Shown here: piece after piece, positions 1,745 through 60,202 of the stretch | How the letters are laid out: each line of letters starts with the position of its first letter | How positions within the stretch are numbered: position 1 is the stretch's first letter | IMG/VR virus record: IMGVR_UViG_3300005405_000309 | Length of the DNA stretch: 64,000 nt | Source of the DNA: an uncultured virus (IMG/VR IMGVR_UViG_3300005405_000309) | Lineage: Duplodnaviria > Heunggongvirae > Uroviricota > Caudoviricetes | Direction: 5' to 3' (one strand) | The notes under the pieces: model-generated | What the model saw: the letters and a program-made list of their open reading frames with translations, nothing else | Told to the model about the DNA's origin: nothing | The model's database searches: none | Made by a program: the position numbers and the translations under genes

Positions 1745-1746
1745 GG

Positions 1747-3099
1747 CTATTCGGATAATCGTGTTGATGATGGTAGCTTTCTCTCTGCTAACATATTTTG
1801 GATGAGAGTTGAAAGATTAGCTCCAAGGTTAATCTCTGGTTCATAAATAAGTATCGGTTCGGCAATCATTTCAGGCAAGAAACCACGGTCGATATTATTA
1901 CTTTTATAGTTGAGTCTTTTCACTTTATGAACTCCTTCAGTGAATAGGATTTTGGTTCTAAGGACATCAAACGAGTAGCCCCTACCGTTCCTATTCATGA
2001 TTTTGATTAAGCCATTAAGCGTCTCAGTATAGGCGTTTGTGGCACGTTTGTTGGGTAAGTCGAAGTAGTTAAATATCTCTTGTTCCCAATTCTTCATTGA
2101 TGTGTTTAAGGGGGCAAAGTGGGGTTCCATAGACGAAGGCATCTGTCCCTTCCACTCCTGATAACGATTGAGTGCCTCATATCTATCCCTGCTAGTGTCG
2201 AAGATATCAAAGAACTCCTCCTTGAGGCTATGAGCCAAACCAAGTTCAGGATAGTTAAGAGTCCATAATTCCAGCTTCAATAGCTGAAATGGCTTAAGTT
2301 TTGATTTTCGTCTAAGGAGGGTGAATCGGTCATGCATTAGTGCTTTACGCTGTTTATCGGTAAGTGTTCGGCGTATCTCTTTGCGAATCTTCTCTAAAGC
2401 CTCATTAGCCCCTTTTATGACGTGAAACTTGTCTATTACTATCTTGGCATGGGGGAGGGCTAACTTAGCTGAATCACGGTACGTAGGCCACATATCCATG
2501 CATACGATTTCTACATTTTCTTTATTGGGCAACTGTTTCAGGTAATCAATGACTGTCGGCTTATTACGGTTCTTAAGTATCTCAACGATTGTCTTTTCTT
2601 TAACGTTGGATATCACACACCGATAGTTGTGTAATAGGTGAGCTTCATCTATTCCAAGCCACTGGGGAGTAGCAAACTGGGTATGTTTTTCAAGCTCTCT
2701 CGCGTAGTCCTTGAAGACATTGCGAATCGTCTTTTCATCAAGCCCTATTTCTTCACTGAGGCTCGTAAATGTACGTTTAAGGGAGTGTTTCTCAATGTAT
2801 TCCAGCAACCTTTTAGTCATTGAACGACTTTCATCAACAAACGTTAACGGCTCCATGAAGGTCCTGGTACATTCCTTACAACGGTAACGCCTACGATGCA
2901 GGTGGATGCCTACGCGTTTGCCATGGGAGGGTGTATCCATGAATAACTGTTCCTTGCCCCCATACCCTTGTAGATTGGCTACACAGCCACACTGGGGGCA
3001 GTAAGAAGGCGGAGAAGCCATCTCCGCACTAATGTGATAGTCGTTATCTGTTTCATCAACCCTAAGTACGCTTAGTTCTTCGATGTTGAGTATGTTCAT
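1747..3099 (-). CDS. ISL3-family DDE transposase
   Basis: CPQCG..CKEC zinc finger, GIDE, CMDMW, IDKFH and NAYTETLN motifs. The stop codon lies inside the right IR. Start placed at MNILN, as in the other two copies. Confidence 0.95.
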   Translation of the reverse strand: MNILNIEELSVLRVDETDNDYHISAEMASPPSYCPQCGCVANLQGYGGKEQLFMDTPSHGKRVGIHLHRRRYRCKECTRTFMEPLTFVDESRSMTKRLLEYIEKHSLKRTFTSLSEEIGLDEKTIRNVFKDYARELEKHTQFATPQWLGIDEAHLLHNYRCVISNVKEKTIVEILKNRNKPTVIDYLKQLPNKENVEIVCMDMWPTYRDSAKLALPHAKIVIDKFHVIKGANEALEKIRKEIRRTLTDKQRKALMHDRFTLLRRKSKLKPFQLLKLELWTLNYPELGLAHSLKEEFFDIFDTSRDRYEALNRYQEWKGQMPSSMEPHFAPLNTSMKNWEQEIFNYFDLPNKRATNAYTETLNGLIKIMNRNGRGYSFDVLRTKILFTEGVHKVKRLNYKSNNIDRGFLPEMIAEPILIYEPEINLGANLSTLIQNMLAERKLPSSTRLSE

Positions 3100-3123
3100 G
3101 ATTGGCTCCAATCGGTTGTAGTG

Positions 3124-3378
3124 TTAATTTGAAAGATTGTAATTAATCCTTACTACGAAAGAGATTTCAAGTTGTTCGAGATTGATTCCCAAATTAGCTT
3201 TTGCTTCGTTTATGAACCATAAACAAAGTTCTTTTTCAGTTGAGAATTTTTGCTGTATTTTTTTTTGAGATACAATGTCGGCCATCTTTTGGAGATTGTT
3301 TTTCTGCTCTTGAGTAAATCCGTTATCCTCGAAAAGAAACACATCACCACTTATTGTTAACTTTATTATCGACCGCAA
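3124..3378 (-). CDS. ISL3 passenger, hypothetical protein
   Basis: AGGAGG RBS before a TTG start at 3378. Confidence 0.65.
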   Translation of the reverse strand: MRSIIKLTISGDVFLFEDNGFTQEQKNNLQKMADIVSQKKIQQKFSTEKELCLWFINEAKANLGINLEQLEISFVVRINYNLSN

Positions 3379-3440
3379 TGTAACTCCTCCTTTCCTGGGA
3401 CTCCTAGGAATATCAATGGTTCTTGGGGTTGTGAACCTTC

Positions 3441-3680
3441 TCAATTCACAAACGCTACTGATGGAAACGCCCATCCTTCTTCATCCTCTTCAATAAGGTA
3501 TGCGTCTCCATTTTTGCTTTTCTCCTTAATAGTTACCTCTGTACCTAAATGAACGTCCATTTCAACAGGTATAGGTGGGTCTGTCATTATGTCATAGAGG
3601 TCATCCTCTCCACCAACACCAAATTGTTCAGCTAACTCCTCATAAGTTTTAAGCATTACCTTTTGCCCATTTTCAAACAT
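3441..3680 (-). CDS. ISL3 passenger, small acidic protein (paralog of 48480-48722)
   Basis: MFENGQK... is near-identical to the ORF at 48480; RBS present. Confidence 0.85.
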   Translation of the reverse strand: MFENGQKVMLKTYEELAEQFGVGGEDDLYDIMTDPPIPVEMDVHLGTEVTIKEKSKNGDAYLIEEDEEGWAFPSVAFVN

Positions 3681-3820
3681 TTTAATTCCCCCTAATTCTT
3701 AGCTTTCCTAATGATAAATATAACACAACAAAGGAGGTATATCAACACGATAATCCGATTTACACTATACAGATACACTTAACGTATTATATCAATATCA
3801 ACATGATAATCCGAATACCC

Positions 3821-13939: not shown

Positions 13940-14332
13940 TTAGATAAACTTCTGAGTCTCAATAAATCGTTCGATCATTGTTACAGATTCCTCACCTACT
14001 GTACAAACTAAATAATTACTCGTCCACAATGTCGGAATCCGGCTTTTAATCCATGAAAACTCTTGTCTCAGTACCCGAGACGTTTGACCCTTAAGTTGGC
14101 GCACTAACCGGTGGATGCCATATTGCGGATCTATCTCTAATAGGAGGTGCACTTGATCGGGCAATATCTCCAATTTAATAATTTCCGCTGCATGAAGTAC
14201 GGCGACCTCTTTTATCAACTCCTCCAACCGTCGTTCAGCTCCATCCACTAGTACGTTACGCCGAAGCTTCGAACACCATATGACGCGATACCTACAAGAA
14301 TAAGTCACTCCGCCATTAATTTTATATTTCAT
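13940..14332 (-). CDS. tnpA: IS200/IS605 TnpA-like Y1 transposase with substituted catalytic residues
   Basis: Fold motifs [25 protein letters not shown] and LWTSNY. HUH reads DQVH; the catalytic Tyr position reads IERFIETQ. Confidence 0.85.
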
Positions 14333-14631
14333 GATAACACTATATAGCAAAGGCCTGTATAGTTCAATCATTTATATAACTTTTTATACCAAAAAACGAG
14401 GAGAGAACAGAAAACCCGGGCCTTCGAGCTATTCGAATTCTATGGTGGAAGGGAAAGTTGCTGATCCATATATGGTAATTATAGTCAATGAAAATAAACA
14501 CACGTTTTTACATGTGTATAAGTTCATCGGTTTAAGGACGTTCCCAGAAGCAGTCTATCGTCAGGCGGGGGAAGACTACACATCGGCTTAAAAAGAGAGA
14601 GGCCCCGAAGGACCTCCGCACGATTCGCAAA

Positions 14632-15785: not shown

Positions 15786-15811
15786 CCGACGCTTAAGTAC
15801 ATAGATTATTA

Positions 15812-16513
15812 TTAAGGCCATATTGTCTCTTCTGGTACGACCCAGATATCCACACCACCGTGAGGATTACGTACCTTCTTAGCAGCAGGGACGAAGGTGG
15901 GGAAGTTTGCTAATATATCTTGAGCACGGGATTGACTTCTTCCATGTTTATGTGCCCATTCTTTTGCCGTGATGTATCCCTCTGGGATATCCAAGAGAGG
16001 CCTATCTCTTTTTACGTCTTGGGCTGCTTTGGCTGCGGCTAACCGTAACGCTTTGATGTGTTTGGTTTGGCACTCAGGGCATCGTTTTTGGCGATCGGTT
16101 TTAGCGGCAAAGCTGATACCGCAGTCTTTACAGATTCTTGGTATATGTTGTTCCTCATTATTGATTGGCTCATCCGGTTCGTCTTGTGAATCTGATTTGT
16201 ATTGCGCATCATCCACGACTGTTGCTTGGGGGACTTTTTCAGGGGAGGCTTGTTCTGCGGTATCGGTTTCGATGAGACGTAAAAATATATTTGGCAATGC
16301 ACTAAATCTCTTTTGAGCTACAGCTTTAAGCTGCCCGGTATTAATACATAACTGGTCGTAATCCATGGTTCTTACGGCCCGTTCAAGATTACGAATGAGT
16401 TCCATAGTTTCATTTTCCCATGACTTAGACCAATTTATCATAACAGCTCTTTTTAATTCGGCAGATTTCGCTCGGTCAAGGAGCTGTGATATAGATCTAT
16501 GTTTCTTTTTCAC
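15812..16513 (-). CDS. Hypothetical protein with Zn ribbon
   Basis: CKDCG..CPEC; GGAGG RBS. Confidence 0.7.
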   Translation of the reverse strand: MKKKHRSISQLLDRAKSAELKRAVMINWSKSWENETMELIRNLERAVRTMDYDQLCINTGQLKAVAQKRFSALPNIFLRLIETDTAEQASPEKVPQATVVDDAQYKSDSQDEPDEPINNEEQHIPRICKDCGISFAAKTDRQKRCPECQTKHIKALRLAAAKAAQDVKRDRPLLDIPEGYITAKEWAHKHGRSQSRAQDILANFPTFVPAAKKVRNPHGGVDIWVVPEETIWP

Positions 16514-16689
16514 TATTTTCCTCCTTATTAGTCTTGATATTTATCATTATTTAGATTATATTATAGTCAAGATCTTCCTTCAAGAAAATGTCGCTGTTAA
16601 GGCGTGGATTAAAATGAAAACAAATTTATAGCAAAAAGGAGAGGCGAACCCTCTCCTTTTTACTATAATACAAAAACCAAATCGAAATT

Positions 16690-17230
16690 CTGCTCATTGA
16701 GTGGTTTTCGAGGCACTTTTTCGATTTTAAGATTCCACGAACCGGTTGGTGTTAGGTCTACCTCGGCTTCGTGAAGAACTTCAATTCTTGATGCTTCAAA
16801 GCCAAATTCCTCGTTAATAAGAATTTTCGATTGTTCGTCGGACAGAACCGTGCTACTATCAAAATGCCCTATAAGAGATTCGGCGGCTTTTCCAACTTCC
16901 TATAATCTTCCTCTGACATATGAGTGCCGGTTGGGTAAGCCTTTTTTTGCGGGACTACATTCCCCTTGCTTTTCATCGTTTGTTGGTAAAGCCATTCAAT
17001 CCCCTTCATGGTGTGCTTTTTCTAGAATTCTGCGATTTCTTCTGCTTTACCATTCGTTTCGGAAAAGATCGGGCAGTTAAGATAGACATATTCGATACGC
17101 TCATAGCATTCCAGTGTGGTTGTTAGGTCCACCAGTTTGTCAAATTCATCCTCCTACATTGATTGATTTCCGCCTTTACCTGTCCGCTCGTTTCGCGCTC
17201 CCAAGAGCTCTATCAAGGCGTTGAGATATG
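16690..17230 (-). pseudogene. Degraded gene with several frameshifts and stops
   Basis: Protein-like fragments in different frames (DEFDKLVD..YERIEYVY; LSDEQSKILINEEFGFE). Boundaries approximate. Confidence 0.4.
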
Positions 17231-17240
17231 GACCTGTGTT

Positions 17241-17573
17241 TCAAGCTGACTCCTCCTGTAGTTCAACAATTGCACCCCGGGATTCTAAATCTTCTAACTG
17301 ACATAAAACCATTGGTAAACACTCCAAAAATGATCCATCTTCAAAAACCATCTTGACACCATACACTGTAGTAAAGCCCTCTTCCGCTGAGCGTATTGTT
17401 GTAACATACTTGTATGGGTATCGTTTTAATATTTTGTTTCTCGCCTTAATTTCTTGCTCTATATACATTTCTTGTTGGCGTGTCGATATTTTAGGATTTG
17501 CACTCCATGTTGACCTGGAGTTAAATTTATCAAGATTTATAGATGCTTTGCAATAATCATCAGCCATTGACAT
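17241..17573 (-). CDS. Hypothetical protein
   Basis: GAGGGG RBS. Confidence 0.65.
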   Translation of the reverse strand: MSMADDYCKASINLDKFNSRSTWSANPKISTRQQEMYIEQEIKARNKILKRYPYKYVTTIRSAEEGFTTVYGVKMVFEDGSFLECLPMVLCQLEDLESRGAIVELQEESA

Positions 17574-17590
17574 CTTAATCCCCTCTTTCT

Positions 17591-18454
17591 TTATCCCTCA
17601 TTGATCCCATAGCTTTCTTCACGCGCGATCTCCGAAACCATACGCTGTAGTTTACGAGGGTCAATCCCATGCTGTGTCTCAATATAAGGAGTCCATTTAT
17701 CAATAAGAGCCCAAGATGATTCGTCTTCCTTTTCCCATGCAAGATCTGAATCTCCGTGATAATAGTTGTAAGCCTCTAAAGCTTCCGGAGGAATTACGGT
17801 TTCAGTTAACTCTTTTTGCCGAGCCTCTTTTCGAGCTTGATTGAGTGCCGATTTTTCCTCCTGCTCTTTTTTGATCTGTTCAACCTTTTCTTTGGCAATA
17901 GACACAACATAGATCCGGGCAAACGATCCTAAAGCACCTGGGCGAATCGCGCTTGCAACACCAATATGATTGATCTTGTCCCAAGGTAATTCAACACCAT
18001 CGACTGAGTATTTTAAATTGGGATAGCCATCAAAATCACCCTTATCCTCGACATCAACCTCGATATGTCCGGCTGGAATCCTTTTCCGTAATTTGGCAGC
18101 TTCCGCTTTCATAGCCTCTAGTAAGGGATTGTCCACAGCTTCCCGTTCAGCTTGATACGCAGCAGCTCGGGCATTATACCTTGCCTGTTGTTCGGCTTGC
18201 AACTTGTTATACTCATCCACTAGTGCGGCTAAATCGGGGCGGCTGTCGTATCTTATGCCGACAGGCTTACCAATGGTTGCAACATGTTCAAACCAAACAA
18301 GTTTTTGGCTGTTAATTTCCTTTGGCTTACCGCCAGTTAGTTTAAGCCCAGCAACAGGTCCGCAGTCCTTGTCGGCATCATAGCTTATGCTTATGCCAAA
18401 AGCTTCACCAGTTTCATCCCATTTGTAGTATTCCTTGACGACTTCATTTGCCAT
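17591..18454 (-). CDS. Hypothetical protein
   Basis: 287 aa, GAGGAG RBS, TTGACA promoter upstream. Confidence 0.75.
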   Translation of the reverse strand: MANEVVKEYYKWDETGEAFGISISYDADKDCGPVAGLKLTGGKPKEINSQKLVWFEHVATIGKPVGIRYDSRPDLAALVDEYNKLQAEQQARYNARAAAYQAEREAVDNPLLEAMKAEAAKLRKRIPAGHIEVDVEDKGDFDGYPNLKYSVDGVELPWDKINHIGVASAIRPGALGSFARIYVVSIAKEKVEQIKKEQEEKSALNQARKEARQKELTETVIPPEALEAYNYYHGDSDLAWEKEDESSWALIDKWTPYIETQHGIDPRKLQRMVSEIAREESYGINEG

Positions 18455-18523
18455 TTTATATTCTCCTCTCGCCCCGCCCCATCCAGGCTGTCGGGTTCAT
18501 GTAATCTCTTGCTGTTAATACTA

Positions 18524-18565
18524 TTAACAGCGTATCGTACAATTTGTCAAGCGATAACGCTGTTA
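18524..18565 (-). promoter_or_regulatory. Promoter with inverted-repeat operator
   Basis: TTAACAGCG...CGCTGTTAA brackets a minus-strand TTGACA. Confidence 0.5.
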
Positions 18566-18834
18566 AGTAAACCTTTTGCTTTTTGTTTGGGTATATACAG
18601 TACTTATACGTTTAAGCATTAATTTGCCCACCTATATAGAGGATGGGAGACTTCTTGTAAGACTATGTTAAAACGGGCCATACCAATTTCATGGCTTATT
18701 ACCACTCCTCCTAACAAAAATTACAGAAGTGAAACTCTTGTAATCCAGATATGTTCTTATACATAGTGTTCTTTGCTCCATCTTTGGAGCAATTGAACCC
18801 CCTCTGTCCGAGAAATATCTGAAAAGATATTTTC

Positions 18835-19475
18835 GGCTATCCGGATTATATGGTGGAAAGGTAGTATTCAATTACCAGTAATCTCAAGTGACCATTTGTT
18901 AATTACATCATGACCTAATTCTTGTTCATCACAACGAACTGCTAAAAATTGAATCCCTTTTTCTGTATAATAAATCAAATAAGGATGTTCAACTTCATCA
19001 CGATTTAGGAAACCTAAAAAACTCAGCCAAACCTCATCTATGTAATGGAATATCCAATCGAAGAATAACTCCGCTTCGCCCCTATCCCGATAAATTGAGC
19101 GAACACATAATGACCAATAGGATAAACGTTCATTATAAATTAGAGAAGAGAAATGTCCTAAAACACCAGTGTCATCAGAAAACGAATTAAGCATTGTATC
19201 CCATTTCTCTTTCAAGAAGAAGTCATGAGACGGTAATGTTGAACATTTCTTATTTACTCCTATCATATACTCAAGCACATCTATAACATCATTAGGAGTA
19301 TCCTTTTTTAAATTGAATCGAATGTTTAATTCTGCAAAATCACCCATATTCACACCAGCCTTATATTCACATATCGGGTATTCGGATTTTATACTTCCAC
19401 CATAAAATCCGATTTAGCAATTATAATCTATATGATGCCTTAAGAGTATAATTCCACCACATAATCCGCAGAGCC
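18835..19475. mobile_element. Non-autonomous ISL3-type cassette with one passenger gene
   Basis: IRs GGCTATCCGGATTATATGGTGG and CCACCACATAATCCGCAGAGCC. TSD ATATTTTC at 18827-18834 and 19476-19483. Confidence 0.9.
18868..19353 (-). CDS. Cassette passenger, phage-like hypothetical protein
   Basis: 161-aa ORF filling the cassette. Confidence 0.75.
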   Translation of the reverse strand: MNMGDFAELNIRFNLKKDTPNDVIDVLEYMIGVNKKCSTLPSHDFFLKEKWDTMLNSFSDDTGVLGHFSSLIYNERLSYWSLCVRSIYRDRGEAELFFDWIFHYIDEVWLSFLGFLNRDEVEHPYLIYYTEKGIQFLAVRCDEQELGHDVINKWSLEITGN

Positions 19476-19511
19476 ATATTTTCATAAAAGAGGGGGCAAC
19501 AACAATAATAT

Positions 19512-29144: not shown

Positions 29145-29166
29145 GGCTCTTCGGATTATATGGCGG
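29145..29166. repeat. Orphan ISL3-type terminal IR
   Basis: GGCTCTTCGGATTATATGGCGG; no partner end found. Confidence 0.8.
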
Positions 29167-29181
29167 TATGACAAATATTTA

Positions 29182-29882: not shown

Positions 29883-31109
29883 CTATCTTTGCACTTGCAT
29901 TAATAATGGGTTAGCCTTCTCAACTAACGTTAACTTTTTACAAGATACTCCAGCGGATAGTTTAACTCCGTCTAATCGTCGAATATCAAAACTACCGGTG
30001 GCTCTTCGACCAAAAATGAAACACTCTTGATTTTGGTACAGAACTTTATCAAACAACTGAAACCCTTTGACATAGCGTGGTGATTTGTTTGCTTTACGAA
30101 TACCACCTTTTAGAATCGTGTTTCTGTGAAGTTGTCTATTCTGTCCGCGAACCTGCTTGATAAGATACGTTTTACTAGAAATCGCTAAGGGATTTCCACT
30201 GATACAACGGGCATCTACGCTGTGTTCTTTTGGTAAACCATAAGCAATTCTTGTGTTTTTAGTAAGATAACCATACGCCAAACTTACTGCTGGATACGCT
30301 TCTTTTAAACGGTTATAGAAACTCCATCGCATAATTCCCATAAAAGCAGCATCTTTGAAAGATTGGCCTTTTTTTAAGTTTAATACAAGTTTCCCACAAT
30401 GATAGTTCTTATGACATTCCTCACAAAGAGTAATTAAGTTGCTAGGTGAATCGCCACCAACCTTTCTGCTTTCGATATGATGAACATTCAATATCTTATT
30501 TTTACAGTCTTTTTTGCCGTGGCATTTATGACCATCCCTAAATAACACATACTCTCTAACATTCCAGAAATCCAATTGTTTACCTTGCTGATAATCTGTG
30601 CCGTTAATATCCGGATGCTTGATTTTCTGGATATCAAAACTGGCCACCTCTACGATTGTCTTCGACACTGGAAGAATAGTGTAGATTAACTTAACGACCT
30701 TCAAGTGAGTTTCGATTTTATTAATGATTGACGGTGCTAACCATCCTGTCTTCTTGCCCTTTACCCTATTAAGGAATCGTGCTCGACGGTATCTAGTCTT
30801 GCGATTCCTTCTAGTTCGCCTATTTTGCCTGCGAGTTGATAACAAGTCCACAATATCTGTTCTGAGTTTAACATCTGCCTCAATTAAAACTTTAATGCGA
30901 GTCGTGGCGGATATTCCCATTGTTTTACTACCCGCGTCAACCCCTAAACTAATCTCTTGTTTTGTTTCCCCCGTTGCTACCATGAGTTGAATAGTAAAGG
31001 GCGTTCTCCTAAATACCTTTGCTTTTCCAGCTTTTAACAATAGTTTTGCTTTCCTCGGCGTTGTCGGCATTAATGCCTGATTCCTATGATTAATAACGAA
31101 TACTCGCAA
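29883..31109 (-). CDS. iscB: RNA-guided endonuclease IscB
   Basis: ALMP N-terminus, RuvC-I GVDAG, Arg-rich bridge helix, RuvC-II VEVASFD, HNH (HHI..NLITLCEECH), RuvC-III HSVDA. Confidence 0.95.
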   Translation of the reverse strand: MRVFVINHRNQALMPTTPRKAKLLLKAGKAKVFRRTPFTIQLMVATGETKQEISLGVDAGSKTMGISATTRIKVLIEADVKLRTDIVDLLSTRRQNRRTRRNRKTRYRRARFLNRVKGKKTGWLAPSIINKIETHLKVVKLIYTILPVSKTIVEVASFDIQKIKHPDINGTDYQQGKQLDFWNVREYVLFRDGHKCHGKKDCKNKILNVHHIESRKVGGDSPSNLITLCEECHKNYHCGKLVLNLKKGQSFKDAAFMGIMRWSFYNRLKEAYPAVSLAYGYLTKNTRIAYGLPKEHSVDARCISGNPLAISSKTYLIKQVRGQNRQLHRNTILKGGIRKANKSPRYVKGFQLFDKVLYQNQECFIFGRRATGSFDIRRLDGVKLSAGVSCKKLTLVEKANPLLMQVQR

Positions 31110-31114
31110 GTTCC

Positions 31115-31336
31115 GTCCCTCCTTTCGGAAGTTAGTTGTCCATCGCCAATGTTGTAAAGGCTTGTTATGTCTACAGCACCGTTCCTACCCTCAGAACTTT
31201 TAACCATAGACGACAGTTGCTACAAACTTGGACTCGCATTTGTAGGTGTCTTGACCTATACAACGTAGTCAGTTAAGACTTAGGCTAGTCAATCAGGCTT
31301 TGTTAAGCCCCTAGCTTTAGCTATGGGGTTATTGAC
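31115..31336 (-). ncRNA. omegaRNA (HEARO-like) scaffold
   Basis: Non-coding stretch upstream of iscB with GACTAGCC, CTACGTT and AACATTGGCGATGG elements. Confidence 0.8.
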
Positions 31337-42526: not shown

Positions 42527-43372
42527 TTATTTTTGTATCCCTTTTAAATAATCACTCGTTATGTACTCCGTCCGCACCACTTGATTTCGTGCATTGAAAT
42601 TCGTGTAATGACTCACTGCCACTCCTTCTGATAAGATCGTGTTTAAATATCCCAGTACAACGGTCGTTGCCATTAGATTCGTCTGCATTCGTTGTGGGTA
42701 ATTCACGACCGCCCTTCCACAAGCTTGCGATGGAAAAAAATCAGTCGCATTCCCTAAAACATCTGAGTACACACCACCAACAGGTTCCAAGATCGTACGA
42801 GAGTTATGTCGTACCCCAAGCACAACCTGGCCAGAATACCCACTCTCTCGTTCATCCTCTTCAGATATTTCCTCAGAGATAGGAAGAACTCCATCATTGC
42901 CAGCATCAATATAGATTAAACTAGGCGAATCCATAAAATGGTCATGAAGTAATCGGCGTGTAGCGTTATTGTCCACTGCACCGATTAAAACCTTAATGAC
43001 CTGAACTCCGGGATAGCTATTAAAATCGCTCTTCATAGTAAACAACTGCTTAACTGCGTCCATCGTTTCTAGGTAATTACCAATCTTGCGAATATCCATA
43101 TCATAGACATTCCCATATCGTCGGGCTAAAACATCGACTTTCTTTTTCCCCACATCTGCCTGAATGAAATTTTGGCGCCTCAGATTATGCTCTTCGACAA
43201 CATCACCGTCAGCCAAAGTAAGACAACCTTCAGTATCAAACGCTTTAAACATCCGGGTCAAAGACTGCAGGATATAGCCACCCGTGCCTCCAACCCCTAC
43301 TAATGCGATATCCCAAATGATTCTAGCCTGTGTACTTGATGGAATAACGCGCAACTCAATCGTTTTTGACAT
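42527..43372 (-). CDS. ThiF/E1-like adenylyltransferase (PRTRC-type)
   Basis: VGVGGTGG, DGDVVEEHNLRRQNF, AVDN and candidate Cys in SQACG. Confidence 0.9.
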   Translation of the reverse strand: MSKTIELRVIPSSTQARIIWDIALVGVGGTGGYILQSLTRMFKAFDTEGCLTLADGDVVEEHNLRRQNFIQADVGKKKVDVLARRYGNVYDMDIRKIGNYLETMDAVKQLFTMKSDFNSYPGVQVIKVLIGAVDNNATRRLLHDHFMDSPSLIYIDAGNDGVLPISEEISEEDERESGYSGQVVLGVRHNSRTILEPVGGVYSDVLGNATDFFPSQACGRAVVNYPQRMQTNLMATTVVLGYLNTILSEGVAVSHYTNFNARNQVVRTEYITSDYLKGIQK

Positions 43373-44771
43373 TCACTTCGCCCCCAGATCGTTCAATCCT
43401 CATGTGCCATGTTTTCTTTTCAGCGTCGGTTGGTAAGTGCCTAGGTGCGTAAGAATCGTTACCAACGATATCGAACGGATTAATACGATGAAGATTCCCG
43501 CCACAAGCAATTCGACAGTCAAAACTCTGTCCTTTTTCATCTAACTTGTCCAGGTTTCCCCATACACCAAAAATGCCCGTCGAGACGGTTTCATCAATAT
43601 CGTCCGCTTCACTAAAAAAAGCATCCCATGTATTGTGCGAATGCATTTCTAAGACTTTTGTATATTTTGCCTCTATTAGTAAGTCTTCCGAATGATTTGT
43701 CGGGAAAACTTCATCAATAGTGACTACCTGGTAAGGAACATGCGCAAAATAACGCTGACCATCCCAATATATTCGTGCAAGAGCCTCCACCGGACTTGGC
43801 CCAATTGCAAGTTTAATAAAAAAATCTCTTACGACTCGTATCAAATCCGCAGGGATTTTGGGCATGAAAAGCTTAACGCCCTCTTGAACCTGTTCAGCAT
43901 TCGGATATGCTTCGTCGTTGAGTTTTATTGCAAAAATCCCAACCTTACTAATCCTCACTTCATAAAGTCCATCCTTACCTTGCAGAAGATTGCTTATTGA
44001 AGGCCTATTAAGAAGCGCTTGCCAACTTGAATGCGTCCGGACCCATGACATATCTTTATGCGCTGCCACAGCACCTTTTTTACCACCAAAAACATCTGCA
44101 AGTACCATCCCGTGTGGTCCAAGGGCCTTGATAACTGCTTGCAAAAGGTGATGTTCAATTTCTTCAAGATCATCCAAACTCGAGATCAACGGATCTTCTA
44201 ACTCTGGTATTGAAACATGAACAACTACTCCATCTTCGACGGTATCATCATTATCCTTTGAGTCCTTCTCATTCAACGCGGGATCTTCTTCCTCTTCCTG
44301 AGTGTCATCCGCATCATCCATGACTTCTTGTGATTCCGGTACCGTCGTTTTCTCCTCTTCTTCTAGAGGCGTTACTTCTGTCTCACCCTTAGCCTTTTTC
44401 TTGGCCTTGGGAAGTTTCGGTGGAATATAACTCATCATTGTCCGTTCCTTCGATAACTCCGGAAAGCGTTTTGCCATTTCCTTACGTATCTCTTGCAATG
44501 TCAACGTTCTGTTTTTAATGAGAATGTAATGGGCCGAAAAACAGAATATCTTCATATAGTTTAGGTATTCAGGTGACTTGTCAGATACGGTCTTAGCCTG
44601 ACCAGGTTTAACATTCGTTGCAGCCATGCCGGTCGTTACTTGTGTACTTGCATTTTTTTCTTTGGCATGCTGTACAGCCCCAGCCGTAAGACCAATCGGC
44701 TTCGGCTTTTCTTTCTTATACTGTTCAGCCTCTTCAGTTGGCAAAAGCCCAAATAAATCTAATTGATCCAT
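43356..44771 (-). CDS. JAB/MPN metallopeptidase with N-terminal putative Ubl and acidic region
   Basis: VEALARIYWD and HSHNTWDAFFSEADDIDE (JAMM); internal GGKKG. Confidence 0.85.
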   Translation of the reverse strand: MDQLDLFGLLPTEEAEQYKKEKPKPIGLTAGAVQHAKEKNASTQVTTGMAATNVKPGQAKTVSDKSPEYLNYMKIFCFSAHYILIKNRTLTLQEIRKEMAKRFPELSKERTMMSYIPPKLPKAKKKAKGETEVTPLEEEEKTTVPESQEVMDDADDTQEEEEDPALNEKDSKDNDDTVEDGVVVHVSIPELEDPLISSLDDLEEIEHHLLQAVIKALGPHGMVLADVFGGKKGAVAAHKDMSWVRTHSSWQALLNRPSISNLLQGKDGLYEVRISKVGIFAIKLNDEAYPNAEQVQEGVKLFMPKIPADLIRVVRDFFIKLAIGPSPVEALARIYWDGQRYFAHVPYQVVTIDEVFPTNHSEDLLIEAKYTKVLEMHSHNTWDAFFSEADDIDETVSTGIFGVWGNLDKLDEKGQSFDCRIACGGNLHRINPFDIVGNDSYAPRHLPTDAEKKTWHMRIERSGGEVNVKND

Positions 44772-44796
44772 TCTTCAATTCCTCCTCAAACATTAA

Positions 44797-45474
44797 TTAC
44801 ATCCGTTGCCATAAATCGTCTAATGTTTCCTGTCTCGATACTAAGATATCCTTCGGAAACACGTCTTTCATCTGCATCGTTTCTATCAACTGACGATAAG
44901 ACATATTTAACATCGTTTGTGTGTTAGGACTATAAAGATGTCCATTATCAGGGCATCCAAAAAAGACCGTTGGCAACCCATTAACCTGCCAAAGCTCTTC
45001 GATCTCTGGTACATCATTCCAACAAGCTAGCGCATCGTCATAGACATTACTGTACGGATAACGATAGAGCTGAGTGTTAGGTTGAATAAACAGATCCTTA
45101 ACAGCCACAACATATTTCTTGGAAACCGCCGTCCCATTTAGAACAAACCCAAAGATTAGATCTGGAAATGGGAGATTTTGAATTCGCTGATCAAATAACC
45201 AGGTATCCCTTAACCCACTAGGAACATGAATTAATACCTTCTGCCCCCCATTGCCCGTTGCATGGCGAAGACAATTCTTAGGGAGCCAAGGTCCCTCTCT
45301 CCACACGGTACTCAAGTTAGCCTCAGCAGCATCGATGAGCATGTGCAATTTCTCAGGCAGCACTTCTTTTTCGATAACTCCGCCCTCGTCGTCTACGAAA
45401 TGCACAAACGGGAACTTGTATTTTCTTAAAAGTATGATAGCCGAACCTTTCTCCTCTAAATCCGTTAGTACCAT
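44797..45474 (-). CDS. Prokaryotic E2-like protein (family D / PRTRC B-like)
   Basis: LPFPDLIF..LYRYPYSNVYDDALACW..FF pattern; next to JAB and ThiF. Confidence 0.8.
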   Translation of the reverse strand: MVLTDLEEKGSAIILLRKYKFPFVHFVDDEGGVIEKEVLPEKLHMLIDAAEANLSTVWREGPWLPKNCLRHATGNGGQKVLIHVPSGLRDTWLFDQRIQNLPFPDLIFGFVLNGTAVSKKYVVAVKDLFIQPNTQLYRYPYSNVYDDALACWNDVPEIEELWQVNGLPTVFFGCPDNGHLYSPNTQTMLNMSYRQLIETMQMKDVFPKDILVSRQETLDDLWQRM

Positions 45475-48017: not shown

Positions 48018-48051
48018 AAACTTATTATAGCATGGTTTTTTACGAAAATCT

Positions 48052-48473
48052 AAGGTTTTCTCCAGCCGATTTACGTAATCCCTAAAAATGTTACGAATAG
48101 ATTTTTCATCCAAACCTATTTCATCTGCAAGAAGACTAACGAAAGTACGCTTTAATGATTGCTGTTCTATGTACTCAATGAGCCTTTTAGTGCAGCCACG
48201 TTTATCATCCGTGCCAGGTAAAGGTTCATAGAACGTCTGCCCACATTACCTGCATTTATAACGCAGCCGGTGAACTTCAATTCCAACTCTCTTGCCGTGC
48301 ATGGGTAAATCCAAAATGAGTTGAACACGCTTTGTGTGCTTGTAGAGATTGGCTTTAGCACCACACTGGGTACAGAAAAGAGGTGGTTTAATCGTTTCCA
48401 CCCCCACTTTGTAAGCATCATCAGATTCTTGGATATTTAGGACACTGTATTCGGGTAGATTAAGTATGTTCAT
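48052..48473 (-). pseudogene. ISL3 transposase remnant
   Basis: Homologous to 50440-51525; in-frame TAA after YKCR; truncated after DYVNRLEKT. Confidence 0.9.
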
Positions 48474-50439: not shown

Positions 50440-51525
50440 TCAGACATTATAGGACCTCAGCTGTTCTATTAGTATACTTATCATCAAACTCGCCAAGCTC
50501 TGACCCCCCGGAAGAGTCATGTTCTTCAGAGCAGTAAGCAAGTCCTTAAAAGCAAATATTAAGTGCTCAGGAATCTGCTCACGCCACTCTTTAAGGCGAA
50601 TTAGTGCTTCCTGCTGGCTTTGAGTCTCCCATATCCGATAAAACTCTTCCTTAAGCTCATAGGCCAGTCCTAAGTCCTTTAGCGTGCCGGTCCAAGCACT
50701 AAGGATTAATTGTTCTCTGATATCTAGTTTTGCTTTCCGTTTGAGCAAGATATGCCTATCGTGCATAAGAGTTCGCCGTTCCTTGGGAGTCAGCCCTTCT
50801 CGTACAGACTTCCGCACAGTTTCTAACGCTTGGTTAGCCATCTTAACGACGTGGAACTTATCGACCACGACTTGAGCCTGGGGCAATACAAGGCTAACTG
50901 CATCACGATAAGGTCTCCACATATCCATGGCAACGTACCTGATCCGTTGACGGTCAGGTAGACTTTGTAAGTAGGTAATCACTGTCGGTTTGTTGCGATC
51001 CGGAAGAATGTCGATGATGGTGTTATCTTGAATATTAGTTATCACACACCTGGGCTTAATAATGTAAATTTCGTCAATCCCAAGCCATTGAGGAGTTTGA
51101 ACCCGAAATGTTTTCTCTAACCGATTCACATAATCCCTAAAGATATTGCGGATCGTCTTTTCATCCACTCCAATTTCATCGGCAAGACTTACAAAAGTAC
51201 GTTTTAAGGACTGTTTTTCTATGTAGCCTACAAGCCGTTTAGTGCATCCCCGTTTATCGTCTGTGTGAGGCAGAACCTCATAAAAGGTCTGCCCACACTC
51301 ACGGCATTTATATCGCTGACGGTTCACATGGATACCTACACGCTTGCCATGCATGGGTAGATCCATGATGAGTTGCTTATGCTTAGTATGTTTGTAGAGA
51401 TTAGCCTTACAACCACATTGAGTACAACAAAGAGGTGGATTAGCTGTCTCCACCTCGATTCGGTAAGCCTCGTCACTTTCTTGGACGTTTATGACGTTGT
51501 ATTCAGGTAAATTTAGTATATTCAT
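50440..51525 (-). pseudogene. ISL3 transposase, C-terminally truncated
   Basis: GIDE, AMDMW and VDKFH present. Homology ends at TALKN (~50520), before the third catalytic (E) motif. Confidence 0.88.
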
Positions 51526-51945: not shown

Positions 51946-51960
51946 CTTCCTTTTAAAAAT

Positions 51961-52110
51961 GGCTCAATAGCTTCACTTTCGTTTCGGCTCGTTTGTTCCC
52001 CGCCCTACGCTTAAACCTAATGTTACCATTTCGGCTCCAAGGACTAGGTACAGGCTACTGGTTAGGTATTACCTGATAGGCTTTTCCTACTGTATGTTAA
52101 TAGCTTACTA
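51961..52110 (-). other. Possible group II intron 5' (domain I) fragment
   Basis: Minus strand AGCTATTAACATACAGTAGG..AACCAGTAGCC..CTTGGAGCCGAA..GGTAAC..TTTAAGCGTAGG resembles, from memory, bacterial group II intron D1. No RT gene. Confidence 0.4.
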
Positions 52111-52381
52111 ATGAAAATAGAATTGCTTCAATTTCCAAGAGGAAACATCACGCATTTGCGTGCTGCTTCGCAGCTCGCGCCTGTGAGGCTATTATAGCCC
52201 TTTTTTCCAATCCATTCCACTTGCTGTTTTCATAATATAAATCCTCCATCAATTTATAAGGCTATCCGGATATCAGTCCATGTATGTTGAATTATTTGCG
52301 CTGTAATAGAACCATACATATATCGATGCATATTAGCCTATCCAATATCGACCGTGTGTAGGAATCGAAGTCTAATTTTTC

Positions 52382-57549: not shown

Positions 57550-57989
57550 CCAGACACCTTCTTTCAGCCTTAAGTTATGTATTAATTATATATCTATATA
57601 TTAAGAAGTCAACACTTTTGAGTGTTGACTAAAATGTTATTTCTAATTATGATAAGGGTTTTATAATATCCAGATTATATGGTGGAAAACCTTCTGATAA
57701 TTTCTAGTTACAATAATCGTTAAACCTTAAGAGAGGCAACATTAGAGACTAGAAAAAATAGACTGTAAAACCCTCGCCATACCCCACAGAACAAACATGT
57801 TTACACTTACAGCGTTCAAATTTTTCATCGAGAGACCGCATAATGACGAATATCGTCTTTCCCTGTGAGATTTCCCGGAACTAAATTTAGGATACCTTTT
57901 AGAAAAAAACGGCTCTTCGGATTATATGGTGGAATAGGAATATGCCATAATCCAAATTTGGAGATTTGTGTAAATATATAAATTGCCCA

Positions 57990-58307
57990 TTATTGGGTAC
58001 TAATTCCGAATAATCTATTCATACCCTGGCGTGTAACGCGCCAATTCCCTTTTGATTTTCTCGCTTCATTGCTACCGAAACGATTTTCGGACAAATATCG
58101 TTTCAATGTAGGCTCAGTAGCATTTGACCATTTTGTAGCTGCTTCAGGCACTGACATCACATCTGTAAGGGATATGATGTTATCCGGTCCGTAAGCTGTG
58201 CCATCTGGAGAAACTAATACAATCTGACCGTAACTACTAGAAGCGTGTCCCTTGGTTAGCCTCCAACCCTCCCATGGACCAGTGCCTTTCCAAATGTCAC
58301 TCATCAA
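57990..58307 (-). CDS. HTH-domain protein (cassette passenger)
   Basis: VMSVPEAATKW...EARKSKGNWRVTRQGMNRLFG. Confidence 0.75.
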   Translation of the reverse strand: MMSDIWKGTGPWEGWRLTKGHASSSYGQIVLVSPDGTAYGPDNIISLTDVMSVPEAATKWSNATEPTLKRYLSENRFGSNEARKSKGNWRVTRQGMNRLFGISTQ

Positions 58308-59290
58308 TTTTCCTCCTTAAACCTGTCGGGGTAGGCTGCTCTTATGGCTTTTTTGGGGTTCTGAGAATAGTATTTTTGCATTGGAGCAGAGAGTCCGTAT
58401 TTCTGAAAGGTTTCAATTTTGATATTTAAAATATCTGTTTCAGGGTTAAGCCTAAGCTTTTCTTCGACCATCCATTTTATCGCAACAATAGCTCTTTCCT
58501 CGTTCCAATAATTTCTCGAAACTACATTTAGTTCCCAAGGTTTATATTTATCGGGATAAGCATCATCTAGTGCGCTAAAAGGGCTGGATTCATACACTAC
58601 ATCTAACATTCCCTCAAGCCCGTTGTCGATAAAGACTTGCTTTGTAAGTTTATTAATAATATCCTTGTTATTCCACTGTAATCTCTCATTAAGTAGCCAT
58701 TTTGTTGCACTTATGGCTGTATTTTTATTCCAAAATTCCCTTGTTACGCTGCTCAGCTCCCAGGGTAAATATTCTTTAGGATATGCCAAGTCCAACGCCT
58801 CAAATACCCCGTTTACTTTAAATAAAACGGTCCTTAATCCATTATCGCCAAATACTTGTGCTTTCAGATTCTTTTTTATATCATCTCTATTCCATTTTAG
58901 TTTTTCTTCGATCAGCCATTTTGTAGCCTGTATCATCGTATCGTTGTTCCAGAAGCCCATTGGCGTACTTGCCAATTCCCATTCCTTAAATCTCCCAGGA
59001 TAGGCAGCATCGAGCGCCTTGAATGGAGTGTTTTCATAAACGATAGTCAGCATTCCGTAGAGTTTATTATCAATGTATATTTTTCCGGAATGCTTTTTTA
59101 TGAAATCATCATCATTCCAACTTAGAATATTTTCAAACATATAACGAGTAACCGTGATAGCGTTTTCAGGTGCTTCTGGGAGTTGCCAAAACCCTTTAGG
59201 GAATTTTTTTATATCTCTCTTTAGTACTAGCTTATAGATTTCTACAGCTGTTAGTCCAAACACCTTAGTTGCAACACTTAGTTTGGCCAT
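58304..59290 (-). CDS. DUF4046-like repeat protein (cassette passenger)
   Basis: About four repeats of ATKWLIEEKL.W..F..NGL..AYP..WEL. Confidence 0.75.
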   Translation of the reverse strand: MAKLSVATKVFGLTAVEIYKLVLKRDIKKFPKGFWQLPEAPENAITVTRYMFENILSWNDDDFIKKHSGKIYIDNKLYGMLTIVYENTPFKALDAAYPGRFKEWELASTPMGFWNNDTMIQATKWLIEEKLKWNRDDIKKNLKAQVFGDNGLRTVLFKVNGVFEALDLAYPKEYLPWELSSVTREFWNKNTAISATKWLLNERLQWNNKDIINKLTKQVFIDNGLEGMLDVVYESSPFSALDDAYPDKYKPWELNVVSRNYWNEERAIVAIKWMVEEKLRLNPETDILNIKIETFQKYGLSAPMQKYYSQNPKKAIRAAYPDRFKEEN

Positions 59291-59375
59291 GAATAGCCCC
59301 CCTTTTATTCGCCTATTCCTCCGAAAGTACACCTAAACATTAGATGCACTTTCGGGAGAATAATCTCTTTGGTGA

Positions 59376-59552
59376 TCAGTACGCTTTTTCCAGTTCAAGC
59401 ATTTCCTCAAAACTGATTACCTTGTCAAGTTCGGCGAATGCGCTAAAATCTGAACGAACACTTGATTCTCCTGAGTCGATGTATTTTCCATCTTGTTCTA
59501 ATTCGGCTTGAAGCTCGCGCCATTCTTTGTAAAGGTTAGTTAGCTTCATCAT
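59376..59552 (-). CDS. Small hypothetical protein (cassette passenger)
   Basis: AGGAG RBS before MMKLT. Confidence 0.6.
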   Translation of the reverse strand: MMKLTNLYKEWRELQAELEQDGKYIDSGESSVRSDFSAFAELDKVISFEEMLELEKAY

Positions 59553-59626
59553 ATCGTAAAACTCCTTCTTGCCCCGCCTCATATAGGCTGCCGGGTTGTT
59601 CTGCCGTATCAATTGCTGTTAAGATA

Positions 59627-59666
59627 ATTATAAGCGAATTCGCTCATAATATCAAGCGAATTCGCT
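59627..59666 (-). promoter_or_regulatory. Sigma-A promoter with two palindromic operators
   Basis: TTGATA-17 bp-TATAAT; AGCGAATTCGCT at 59633-59644 and 59655-59666. Confidence 0.8.
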
Positions 59667-59728
59667 TATAATTCAAAATTTAAACTGGAAATTAAAATTG
59701 CATTTTCCACCATAAAATCCGGATAGCC

Positions 59729-60202
59729 AAAAAAACTACCATATATAAAAGTAAACAGTGAAAACAAAAAGACGACTAACGTTTTCATAGGCGGTATTAC
59801 AGATGCTACGGTAACGTTCAACTTGTTGAAATATAGCCACCCTATTACGACTAAACTACTTAACGTAAGTATCTTCACGAATGCTCTGAAATTGATAGCT
59901 TGTGGGATTGGCTTAAAAAACACATACGCCAATAGATATATAATGCGATTCCCAGTGGTTATCGGTACATAAGTTAATTCTAAAATATCCTTTTGATTAA
60001 GCCGAACTAGACCGTTAGGTTTAGTTATTAGATAGTCTGAAATAGACAACTCGGAAGAGGTAAACCATTTTTGGAAATCAGGAAAATCGGACATCGCAAC
60101 AAAAAAACTCATTTTCGTATCATTTCTAAGTGTTACATTAACAACGTATTTAAGTTGTTGGTTCATAGAATTAAGGAGATTTTTAAACGATATGGTTTTC
60201 AT
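59729..60202 (-). pseudogene. Membrane-protein gene interrupted by the cassette
   Basis: Reads ..YGSFF into the IR; continues in frame at 57902 as LKGILNLVPG... Confidence 0.75.

Follow-up and report, generated by a model that had tools for sequence, protein, structure and literature searches.

Mobile insertion cassettes (MICs) are defined as units bounded by two inverted repeats (IRs) of an insertion sequence (IS) that contain no transposase, hold at least one coding sequence, and share a conserved region beside the left IR with the parent IS (PMC6199540). Documented examples come from very few IS families. One is MIC231 of the Bacillus cereus group, which derives from IS231, a member of the IS4 family, and whose mobilisation in trans has been shown experimentally (Chen et al. 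1999 and De Palmenaer et al. 2004, as summarised in PMC6199540). Here, we describe a 641-bp unit with ISL3-type ends at positions 18835–19475 of a 64,000-nucleotide stretch of DNA from an uncultured virus record (IMG/VR IMGVR_UViG_3300005405_000309), the whole of which is referred to as the window. The unit, hereafter called the cassette, carries a single gene and no transposase, and we consider it very likely to be a MIC derived from an ISL3 element, non-autonomous, that entered its site by a transposition duplicating 8 bp, with the transposase coming from elsewhere.

The cassette resembles MIC231, as the latter is presented in PMC6199540, in having IS-type IRs without a transposase, varied passengers, and a left region shared with the parent, and in its association with Bacillota. 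The parent is an ISL3 element and not IS231 of the IS4 family, and both the ends and the target duplication, which is 8 bp long and AT-rich, differ from those of MIC231. Many of the ISL3 units are also small, 316–641 bp with a single small open reading frame (ORF), whereas about 0.7–3 kb is quoted for MICs in the same source. Movement in trans is an experimental result for MIC231, whereas for the ISL3 cassette it is a proposal. Within the ISL3 family, the 2985-bp element ISPst2 has ends that read GGGTATCCGGAATTTCTGGTTGAT and GGGTATACGGATTTAATGGTTGAT, direct repeats TTTTTAAA and CAAAAAAG (PMC6305408, Table 3), and two passenger genes, for an ArsR regulator and a permease, beside its own transposase. 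The closely similar ends, the 8-bp AT-rich duplications, and the presence of passengers inside the IRs are shared with the cassette, but the transposase is not. Like ISPst2, two whole ISL3 elements considered below, one in a viral contig (L065) and one in the window (1745–3820), hold small ORFs in the interval between the left IR (IRL) and the transposase. ISPpu12 is another ISL3-family element with passenger genes.

Published ISL3 members have ends that begin with GGCTCTTCG and are flanked by 8-nt repeats, and a 187-nt miniature inverted-repeat transposable element (MITE) in Microcystis aeruginosa was assigned to ISL3 through its matching ends (PMC11448079). This MITE is similar to the cassette in being non-autonomous, in the first bases of its ends, and in its 8-nt repeats, but it is cyanobacterial and holds non-coding sequence or doubtful ORFs over the IRs, whereas the cassette has a conserved gene, a leader, and a trailer. 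A search of the open-access literature, which did not extend to subscription papers, ISfinder or TnPedia, turned up no account of a cassette family derived from ISL3. Passenger-carrying elements such as ISPst2 and ISL3-derived MITEs are already in print, and the cassette is a MIC derived from ISL3 instead of IS231.

The initial annotation of this DNA had proposed a transposase-free, ISL3-ended cassette with one 161-residue ORF, an exact 8-bp target-site duplication, a leader composed of an outer IR, a TATAAT box and an inner IR copy, and a hairpin formed by the inner copy with an inverted IR copy. All of these parts could be located within 1–2 nt of where they had been placed. The features of the cassette and its immediate borders are as follows:

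18827–18834, no strand: left copy of the target-site duplication, ATATTTTC, identical at 8/8 positions to 19476–19483
18835–18858, plus strand: terminal IR of the right type (IRR), GGCTATCCGGATTATATGGTGGAA, on the 3' side of the cargo gene, from a repeat search
18859–18878, minus strand: subterminal trailer, CTGGTAAT...TTCCACC on the cargo strand, overlapping the last codons and the stop codon of the cargo ORF
18868–19347, minus strand: cargo gene, 159 amino acids from ATG at 19347 (161 from GTG at 19353), from the ORF list and an alignment of homologues
19344–19362, minus strand: ribosome-site and start-codon context, AAGGCTGGTGTGAATATGG, identical at 18/19 positions to that of the first ORF of L065
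19377–19393, plus strand: 17-nt copy of the outer 17 nt of the IRR-type terminus, GGGTATTCGGATTTTAT, pairing as a hairpin with the inner IR copy
19396–19413, minus strand: inner subterminal copy of the IR core, without the six terminal bases, from a repeat search
19420–19425, minus strand: TATAAT box in the interval between the outer and inner IRs, read from the sequence
19452–19475, minus strand: terminal IR of the left type (IRL), GGCTCTGCGGATTATGTGGTGGAA, on the 5' side of the cargo gene, from a repeat search
19476–19483, no strand: right copy of the target-site duplication, ATATTTTC, read directly and recomputed as 8/8

The two 24-nt IR arms (18835–18858 and 19452–19475) are alike at 21/24 positions and 88% complementary, and a degenerate pattern of the 24-mer has five matches in the 64-kb window compared with 0.00 expected from 100 shuffles. 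Inside the cassette, the only ORF of at least 40 residues is on the minus strand (18868–19353). Alignment with six close homologues resets its start from the GTG codon to ATG 19347, and the conserved ORF then occupies 480 of the 641 bp. Two other identities for the unit were rejected. It is not an autonomous ISL3 IS, having no PF01610 match and no similarity to ISL3 transposase (the L065 transposase finds no tblastn match within 18835–19475), and it is not a MITE in the sense of a short, non-coding element, being 641 bp long with a conserved ORF. What is present is the set of features by which MICs are recognised, i.e., ISL3 IRs, an AT-rich 8-bp repeat, an unrelated gene in the absence of a transposase, and a left region in common with the parent.

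The assignment of the ends to ISL3 is based on a scan of public collections with the IR pattern. IRs of the same 24-mer type end 5–8 nt past the stop codon of Pfam-verified ISL3 transposases in two loci, L025 and L065. The L025 transposase, from Desulfosporosinus metallidurans, matches PF01610 at 5e-66 and also has the ISL3 helix-turn-helix (HTH) and zinc ribbon; its IR, GGCTATCCGGATTATGTGGTGGAA, agrees with the left arm of the cassette at 23/24 positions, i.e., with one position different, and this ISL3 copy is without its 5' end. The viral contig of L057/L065 encodes a 458-residue transposase (PF01610 at 3.8e-66), and the element in L065 is complete at 2519 bp, comprising IRL, four small ORFs, the transposase, and IRR, with the exact repeat TGTTTAAA.

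The initial annotation had also suggested that genomes be scanned for IR pairs with 8-bp repeats, and such a scan shows that the cassette belongs to a family. Eighteen IR-bounded units were compared, 16 without and two with a transposase. Exact 8/8 flanking repeats are present in 15/18 units (13/16 of the transposase-free units and 2/2 of those with a transposase), while a control with the next 8 nt outward on each side gave 0/18 matches. The exact repeats of the family are 90% A+T. As for the remaining units, the flanks of L009 match at 7/8 positions, and L001 (3/8) and L024 (2/8) are without a repeat. IR arms that are alike at 19–22/24 positions, as in the cassette, are usual among the relatives with exact repeats. 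The transposase-free units are 316–2414 bp long and come from several species of Paenibacillus, from Caldifermentibacillus, Bacillus sp. and Desulfosporosinus, and from six viral contigs; one unit occupies the same site in two related viral contigs (L003 and L005). With respect to cargo, the same two genes are found in two of the 16, whereas each of the remaining 14 has a cargo of its own.

When 13 short units are oriented with the GGCTCT-type end first, the first 95 and last 70 nt, not counting the IRs, show a mean identity of 61–62% between units, compared with 43% for the middles, which is close to the value for unrelated AT-rich DNA under the same scoring. A trailer of the form CTGGAAAT-N(about 12)-TTCCACC can be recognised by eye in 10/13 of the short units, and a leader of about 70 nt is common to six Paenibacillus-type and viral units. 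The longest ORF runs from the end of the leader to the end of the trailer in 10/13 units (L014 being assigned by its trailer), and the transposase genes of L025 and L065 point the same way. In the larger units (57911–59728 in the window, and L001), the genes are reversed and located behind palindromic operator-like repeats of their own, and both units end with an HTH_59 gene. The cargo of L007 is a divergent gene pair encoding a TetR regulator and a short-chain dehydrogenase, and the same pair is found at 76–80% DNA identity in three other places without cassette ends.

Some members of the family lie close to each other. In Paenibacillus xylaniclasticus, cassettes of 498 and 316 bp are located 140 bp apart (L012, 2071–3024), each with its own exact 8-bp repeat, and a further cassette with an extra end is found in the same genome (L013). 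This clustering suggests insertion hot spots.

The window also contains a second transposase-free unit:

57911–59728, minus strand: sister cassette, 1818 bp, with three ORFs and no transposase, and the exact repeat AAAAAAAC at 57903–57910 and 59729–59736

The IR arms of this sister cassette are alike at 21/24 positions, and its ORFs encode proteins of 78 residues, 342 residues (with a weak match to DUF4046), and 105 residues (HTH_59). It interrupts the 3' part of an ORF for a 178-residue membrane protein, of which there are four homologues of 198–238 residues that are 65–77% identical. With the cassette in place, the homologues align only to residue 157–158 of the window protein; when the cassette and one repeat are deleted in silico, the alignments extend to residue 181–182, and the score for the homologue P0158 rises from 578 to 682. 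At the DNA level, locus L066, from the Desulfosporosinus metagenome-assembled genome that encodes the homologue P0157, is colinear over the site (63/85 positions, ungapped) with a single copy of the target. This genome thus provides an empty-site allele for the sister cassette, as judged by sequence comparison. Upstream of the 78-residue ORF (59620–59670), there are two palindromic AAGCGAATTCGCT cores that resemble operators of a promoter belonging to the sister cassette.

If the 641-bp cassette and one repeat are removed, the flanks fold as one hairpin with a free energy of –26.6 kcal/mol (z = –5.6), a value that was reached by none of 500 mononucleotide shuffles. Because the flanks rejoin as a single hairpin, the insertion target was one hairpin arm. 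The reconstituted hairpin lies 29 nt past the stop codon of a 149-residue ribbon-helix-helix gene (RHH/YokU-like). No relative of this gene was found in the viral contigs. The flanking 287-residue gene has a relative in one viral record only, in a different context, and the phage and plasmid collections contain no DNA that is near-identical to the window.

The cargo protein is not a decayed fragment of a transposase, a possibility that the initial annotation had named as fatal to its proposal: it has no similarity to ISL3 transposase, and it belongs to phrog_4334, a family with no known function (E 2.9e-12, residues 3–135 on profile positions 1–140 of 190). There is no Pfam family for the protein, and a Pfam search with 16 members of the cargo family gave nothing consistent. 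A seven-sequence profile retrieves 934 cluster representatives at E ≤ 1e-3, of which 335 reach E ≤ 1e-10. The AlphaFold2 model has an alpha/beta fold with a mean pLDDT of 70.6; comparison with the PDB in Foldseek returned nothing at E ≤ 1e-3, the only rows being weak ones of ferredoxin-like and ABM type. The cargo family is one of alpha/beta proteins that are common in phages and prophages. The nearest protein-atlas clusters are named "hypothetical protein" only and are often from Uroviricota (tailed phages). The description of the ORF as phage-like holds only loosely, through phrog_4334 and these clusters. Our guess would be an accessory protein of a phage or plasmid.

Homologues of the cargo occur in 3/401 genomes of the Paenibacillus xylaniclasticus (G004) family, and no IR is found within seven mismatches at the four Paenibacillus-family cargo loci. 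The best Paenibacillus homologue (47% identity) is part of a tight operon with no IRs within 1.4 kb, which argues that the gene is an ordinary one that was captured by the cassette. A further homologue of the cargo protein, P0002, is 56% identical and, like it, terminates in TGN.

The leader upstream of the cargo gene differs in type from the one of about 70 nt in the six units mentioned above, and is of the same type as that of transposase-bearing relatives. An inner copy (19390–19411) is 86% identical to 19447–19468, and the sequence of outer IR, TATAAT, and inner copy is also that of L065 and of the complete IS in the window (3742–3820), where inner IR copies are similarly situated 46–57 nt inside IRL (3742–3758 in the window IS) and TATAAT is at 3786–3791. 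The hairpin of the cassette leader has two perfectly complementary arms of 11 nt (19382–19392 and 19402–19412) and folds as RNA with –13.1 kcal/mol (z = –4.05), which was reached by 0/500 mononucleotide shuffles. The cargo is probably transcribed from this IS leader. The initial annotation had gone further and called the cassette expression-ready, which can be taken only as a proposal: its leader signals are common to the transposase-bearing relatives, and the result of a promoter scan, given below, does not favour it.

Additional ISL3 material, missed by the initial annotation, is found elsewhere in the window. With the L065 transposase as tblastn query, three places were matched:

1745–3820, minus strand: complete ISL3 element of 2076 bp with a 454-residue transposase, two small upstream ORFs, and the exact repeat TTTTATCC
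48045–48473, minus strand: third ISL3 transposase fragment, matching residues 15–157 of the L065 protein
50440–51525, minus strand: 3'-truncated ISL3 transposase of 361 residues, covering positions 1–195 of 240 of the DDE profile

The transposase gene of the complete element (1747–3111) encodes a full PF01610 domain, zinc ribbon, and HTH, and the ends of the element are GGCTATTCGGATAATCGTGTTGA and GGGTATTCGGATTATCATGTTGA. Its two small ORFs (116 and 79 residues), in the interval between the leader and the transposase, have no match in Pfam or PHROG. The truncated protein encoded at 50440–51525 is 90% identical to the L025 transposase, and thus of the type whose IR fits the cassette. Solo or partial ISL3 ends are present at 14427, 29145, 49235, 52260, and 57671, and the end at 29145 has no partner within 8 kb when up to eight mismatches are allowed. 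At 14427–14450, the ISL3-like end is a remnant, AGCTATTCGAATTCTATGGTGGAA, with four mismatches, and is situated 56 nt to the right of an IS200-type Y1 transposase gene (PF01797, 1.8e-31; the whole at 13943–14450). Upstream of the truncated transposase and two small ORFs, there is a gene-free stretch of 240 nt (51960–52200) that appears structured by eye, and no Rfam family reaches its gathering score there.

The simplest sequence of events would be the following. A passenger-carrying ISL3 element of the kind seen in L065 and at 1745–3820, with small ORFs between leader and transposase, would have lost its transposase and retained both IRs, the leader on the IRL side, and the trailer on the IRR side. 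One unrelated gene now fills the transposase slot in the orientation of the transposase. An ISL3 transposase from elsewhere, most likely of the 50440–51525 type, would have driven DDE transposition of the unit into the AT-rich hairpin arm 29 nt behind the 149-residue gene, with duplication of 8 bp. Mobilisation of the cassette in trans, which was part of the initial proposal, is plausible. The anatomy of the cassette, the ISL3 membership of its ends, insertion with duplication in the family and in the sister cassette, and a cargo other than a transposase are established by the sequences, whereas the acting transposase, the expression of the cargo, and any present mobility are inferred.

Several observations weigh against the interpretation of the cassette as a trans-mobilised ISL3 derivative. 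An empty allele of this particular site, which the initial annotation had proposed to look for in related replicons, did not turn up. None was found in the one sequencing run with the region (the probable source, available in contig form, where a single jointless contig covers the whole stretch), none in viral contigs or in the related 79-kb record G474, and none in three Desulfosporosinus genomes, where only a 61-nt patch is found; JGI metagenomes gave only 27%-identical relatives of the 149-residue gene and no empty site. On the cargo strand of 19354–19475, the promoter scan detected no sigma-70-like site that scored 9/12 or better. The IRs of the intact element at 1745–3820 match those of the cassette at only 17/24 positions (counted by hand), and the window has no intact transposase of the cognate type, the one at 50440–51525 being without the end of its DDE domain. 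A close relative is present in only 1/69 genomes of the family of the L025 genome (G001), and is 5'-truncated. The 17-nt copy of the IRR terminus (19377–19393) is missing from both L065 and the window IS at 1745–3820, and the ORF polarity is opposite in 3/13 of the short units (L012b, L056, and L061), although L012b has a 42-codon ORF behind a Shine-Dalgarno-like site that does obey the polarity. For the L007 cassette, a search of 37 Paenibacillus genomes found the left flank with synteny stopping at the site, and no clean empty allele.

The state of the transposases bears on the possibility that the cassette is a fossil, i.e., that it transposed once and is now an immobile, fixed gene, with no compatible transposase and with ends that have drifted (3/24 mismatches). 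The truncated gene in the window, the single truncated relative among the related genomes, and the solo or partial ends (29145, 49235, 52260, and 57671), as signs of old and decaying ISL3 activity, all agree with such a history, and we regard it as quite possible, if short of probable. On the other hand, the direct repeats remain identical at 8/8 positions, the ORF is unbroken, the likeness of the arms is in the range that is usual for relatives with exact repeats, and a transposase could be located on the host chromosome or in the approximately 14.5 kb of the 78.5-kb contig that extend beyond the window. A different origin for the leader is raised by the 17-nt copy, which exactly matches the first 17 nt of the L065 IRR and faces the outer IRL. 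A 99-bp IRL–IRR element (19377–19475) may have landed upstream of a gene with an IRR already downstream, after which a transposase used the new IRL together with the distal IRR, leaving the inner, truncated IRR as a scar. Clustering of cassettes and MITEs in the family, as in the L012 pair and the extra ends of L013 and L026, would fit this assembly route. We nevertheless find it unlikely, since there is no target duplication around the 99-bp piece (ACATATCG vs ATATTTTC), and since the ribosome-site and ATG context that L065 also has is located beyond the inner IRR remnant, so that the leader is colinear with the leader of a whole IS. In a speculative variant, the 17-nt copy would be what is left of a 99-bp element that collapsed after re-arming a cassette truncated at its 5' end.

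Independent insertion of two solo ends or MITEs around a resident gene, so that the 641 bp never moved as a unit, could draw on the solo ends at 29145 and 52260. It is made very improbable by the identical 8-bp repeats, which are outside both ends and around neither end alone, by the single hairpin that the flanks re-form when the whole unit is removed, and by the ORF, whose last codons enter the family trailer and whose start is within the family leader; furthermore, 13 other exact-repeat units have different cargo in the same frame. The copies of the IR core beside TATAAT boxes (19396–19413 and 57671–57685) could alternatively be taken to mean that the repeats are regulatory palindromes or operators of a plasmid or phage, with the flanking 8-mers as chance matches. 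We give this virtually no credence, considering the five pattern matches in the window where none are expected, the occurrence of the same ends around true ISL3 transposases, the difference between 15/18 exact flanks and 0/18 in the control, and the empty-site allele of the sister cassette. Transposition of the cassette as an ISL3-derived unit is the interpretation that we favour, and the transposase-free, ISL3-ended, single-gene structure that was originally proposed is in agreement with the ends, the AT-rich 8-bp duplication, the unrelated cargo, and the empty site of the sister cassette.

With respect to the replicon, the contig to which the window belongs is 78,497 bp long and derives from a groundwater metagenome. 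Every one of the 49 ORFs with 130 or more residues in the window is on the minus strand, and 39 of these were included in a Pfam scan. The families found are several DNA methylases, an MmeI-type enzyme, an NAD-dependent ligase, a DnaN clamp, a UvrD helicase, a ClpX-like ATPase, a ThiF/E2 pair, a MoxR-VWA pair, a GGDEF protein, an M23/SLT hydrolase, and an IS200-type transposase, and among the 39 scanned ORFs there is no capsid, portal, terminase or tail protein. Because of the absence of phage structural and packaging proteins from the scan, the replicon looks like a plasmid or an integrative and conjugative element, rather than a typical phage. The record G474 (79,361 bp) is classed as a complete virus with terminal repeats, and the sole DNA that it has in common with the window is a two-gene module (287 and 233 residues, no family) with 76–82% identity. 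In the window, this module (15809–18561) adjoins the 641-bp cassette; the copy in G474 is that of L001 (3001–5181), and is located between two ISL3 IRs that have no direct repeat, alongside an HTH_59 gene.

Two other loci in the window can be mentioned. A complete IscB-type unit on the minus strand (29883–31336) encodes a 408-residue protein with RRXRR (PF14239, 3.1e-61) and HNH domains, and directly upstream of the gene there is a full-length HEARO RNA (31131–31336; RF02033, 151.6 bits, model positions 1–211 of 211); the solo ISL3 end at 29145–29168 lies just past this unit. At 42530–45474, a ThiF-family E1-like gene, a 471-residue ORF without a family, and a Prok-E2_D gene are consecutive, and constitute a ubiquitin-like conjugation module of the kind that is found on mobile elements.

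At least 16 different units without a transposase are thus bounded by the ends of one ISL3 subgroup, on plasmid-like replicons, viral contigs, and chromosomes from several genera of Bacillota, and in most of them a single small gene with no known function follows an IS leader in a fixed orientation. It is conceivable, though doubtful, that the ISL3 frame is a general single-gene carrier of Bacillota, a transposon-borne counterpart of integron cassettes, with a slot that is refilled time and again with different small accessory genes of phages and plasmids. If so, the cargo genes would lie in the sense of the leader, each arriving with its own expression signals, and the cassettes would hop among plasmids, phages, and chromosomes by means of the transposases of rare autonomous copies. 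The part most worth following is the occurrence of many different small cargos within one frame. The cassette frame provides an annotation rule for such genes and a list of candidate accessory functions and, if general, it would represent a simple way, so far overlooked, for accessory ("moron"-like) genes to be exchanged among phages, plasmids, and their hosts.

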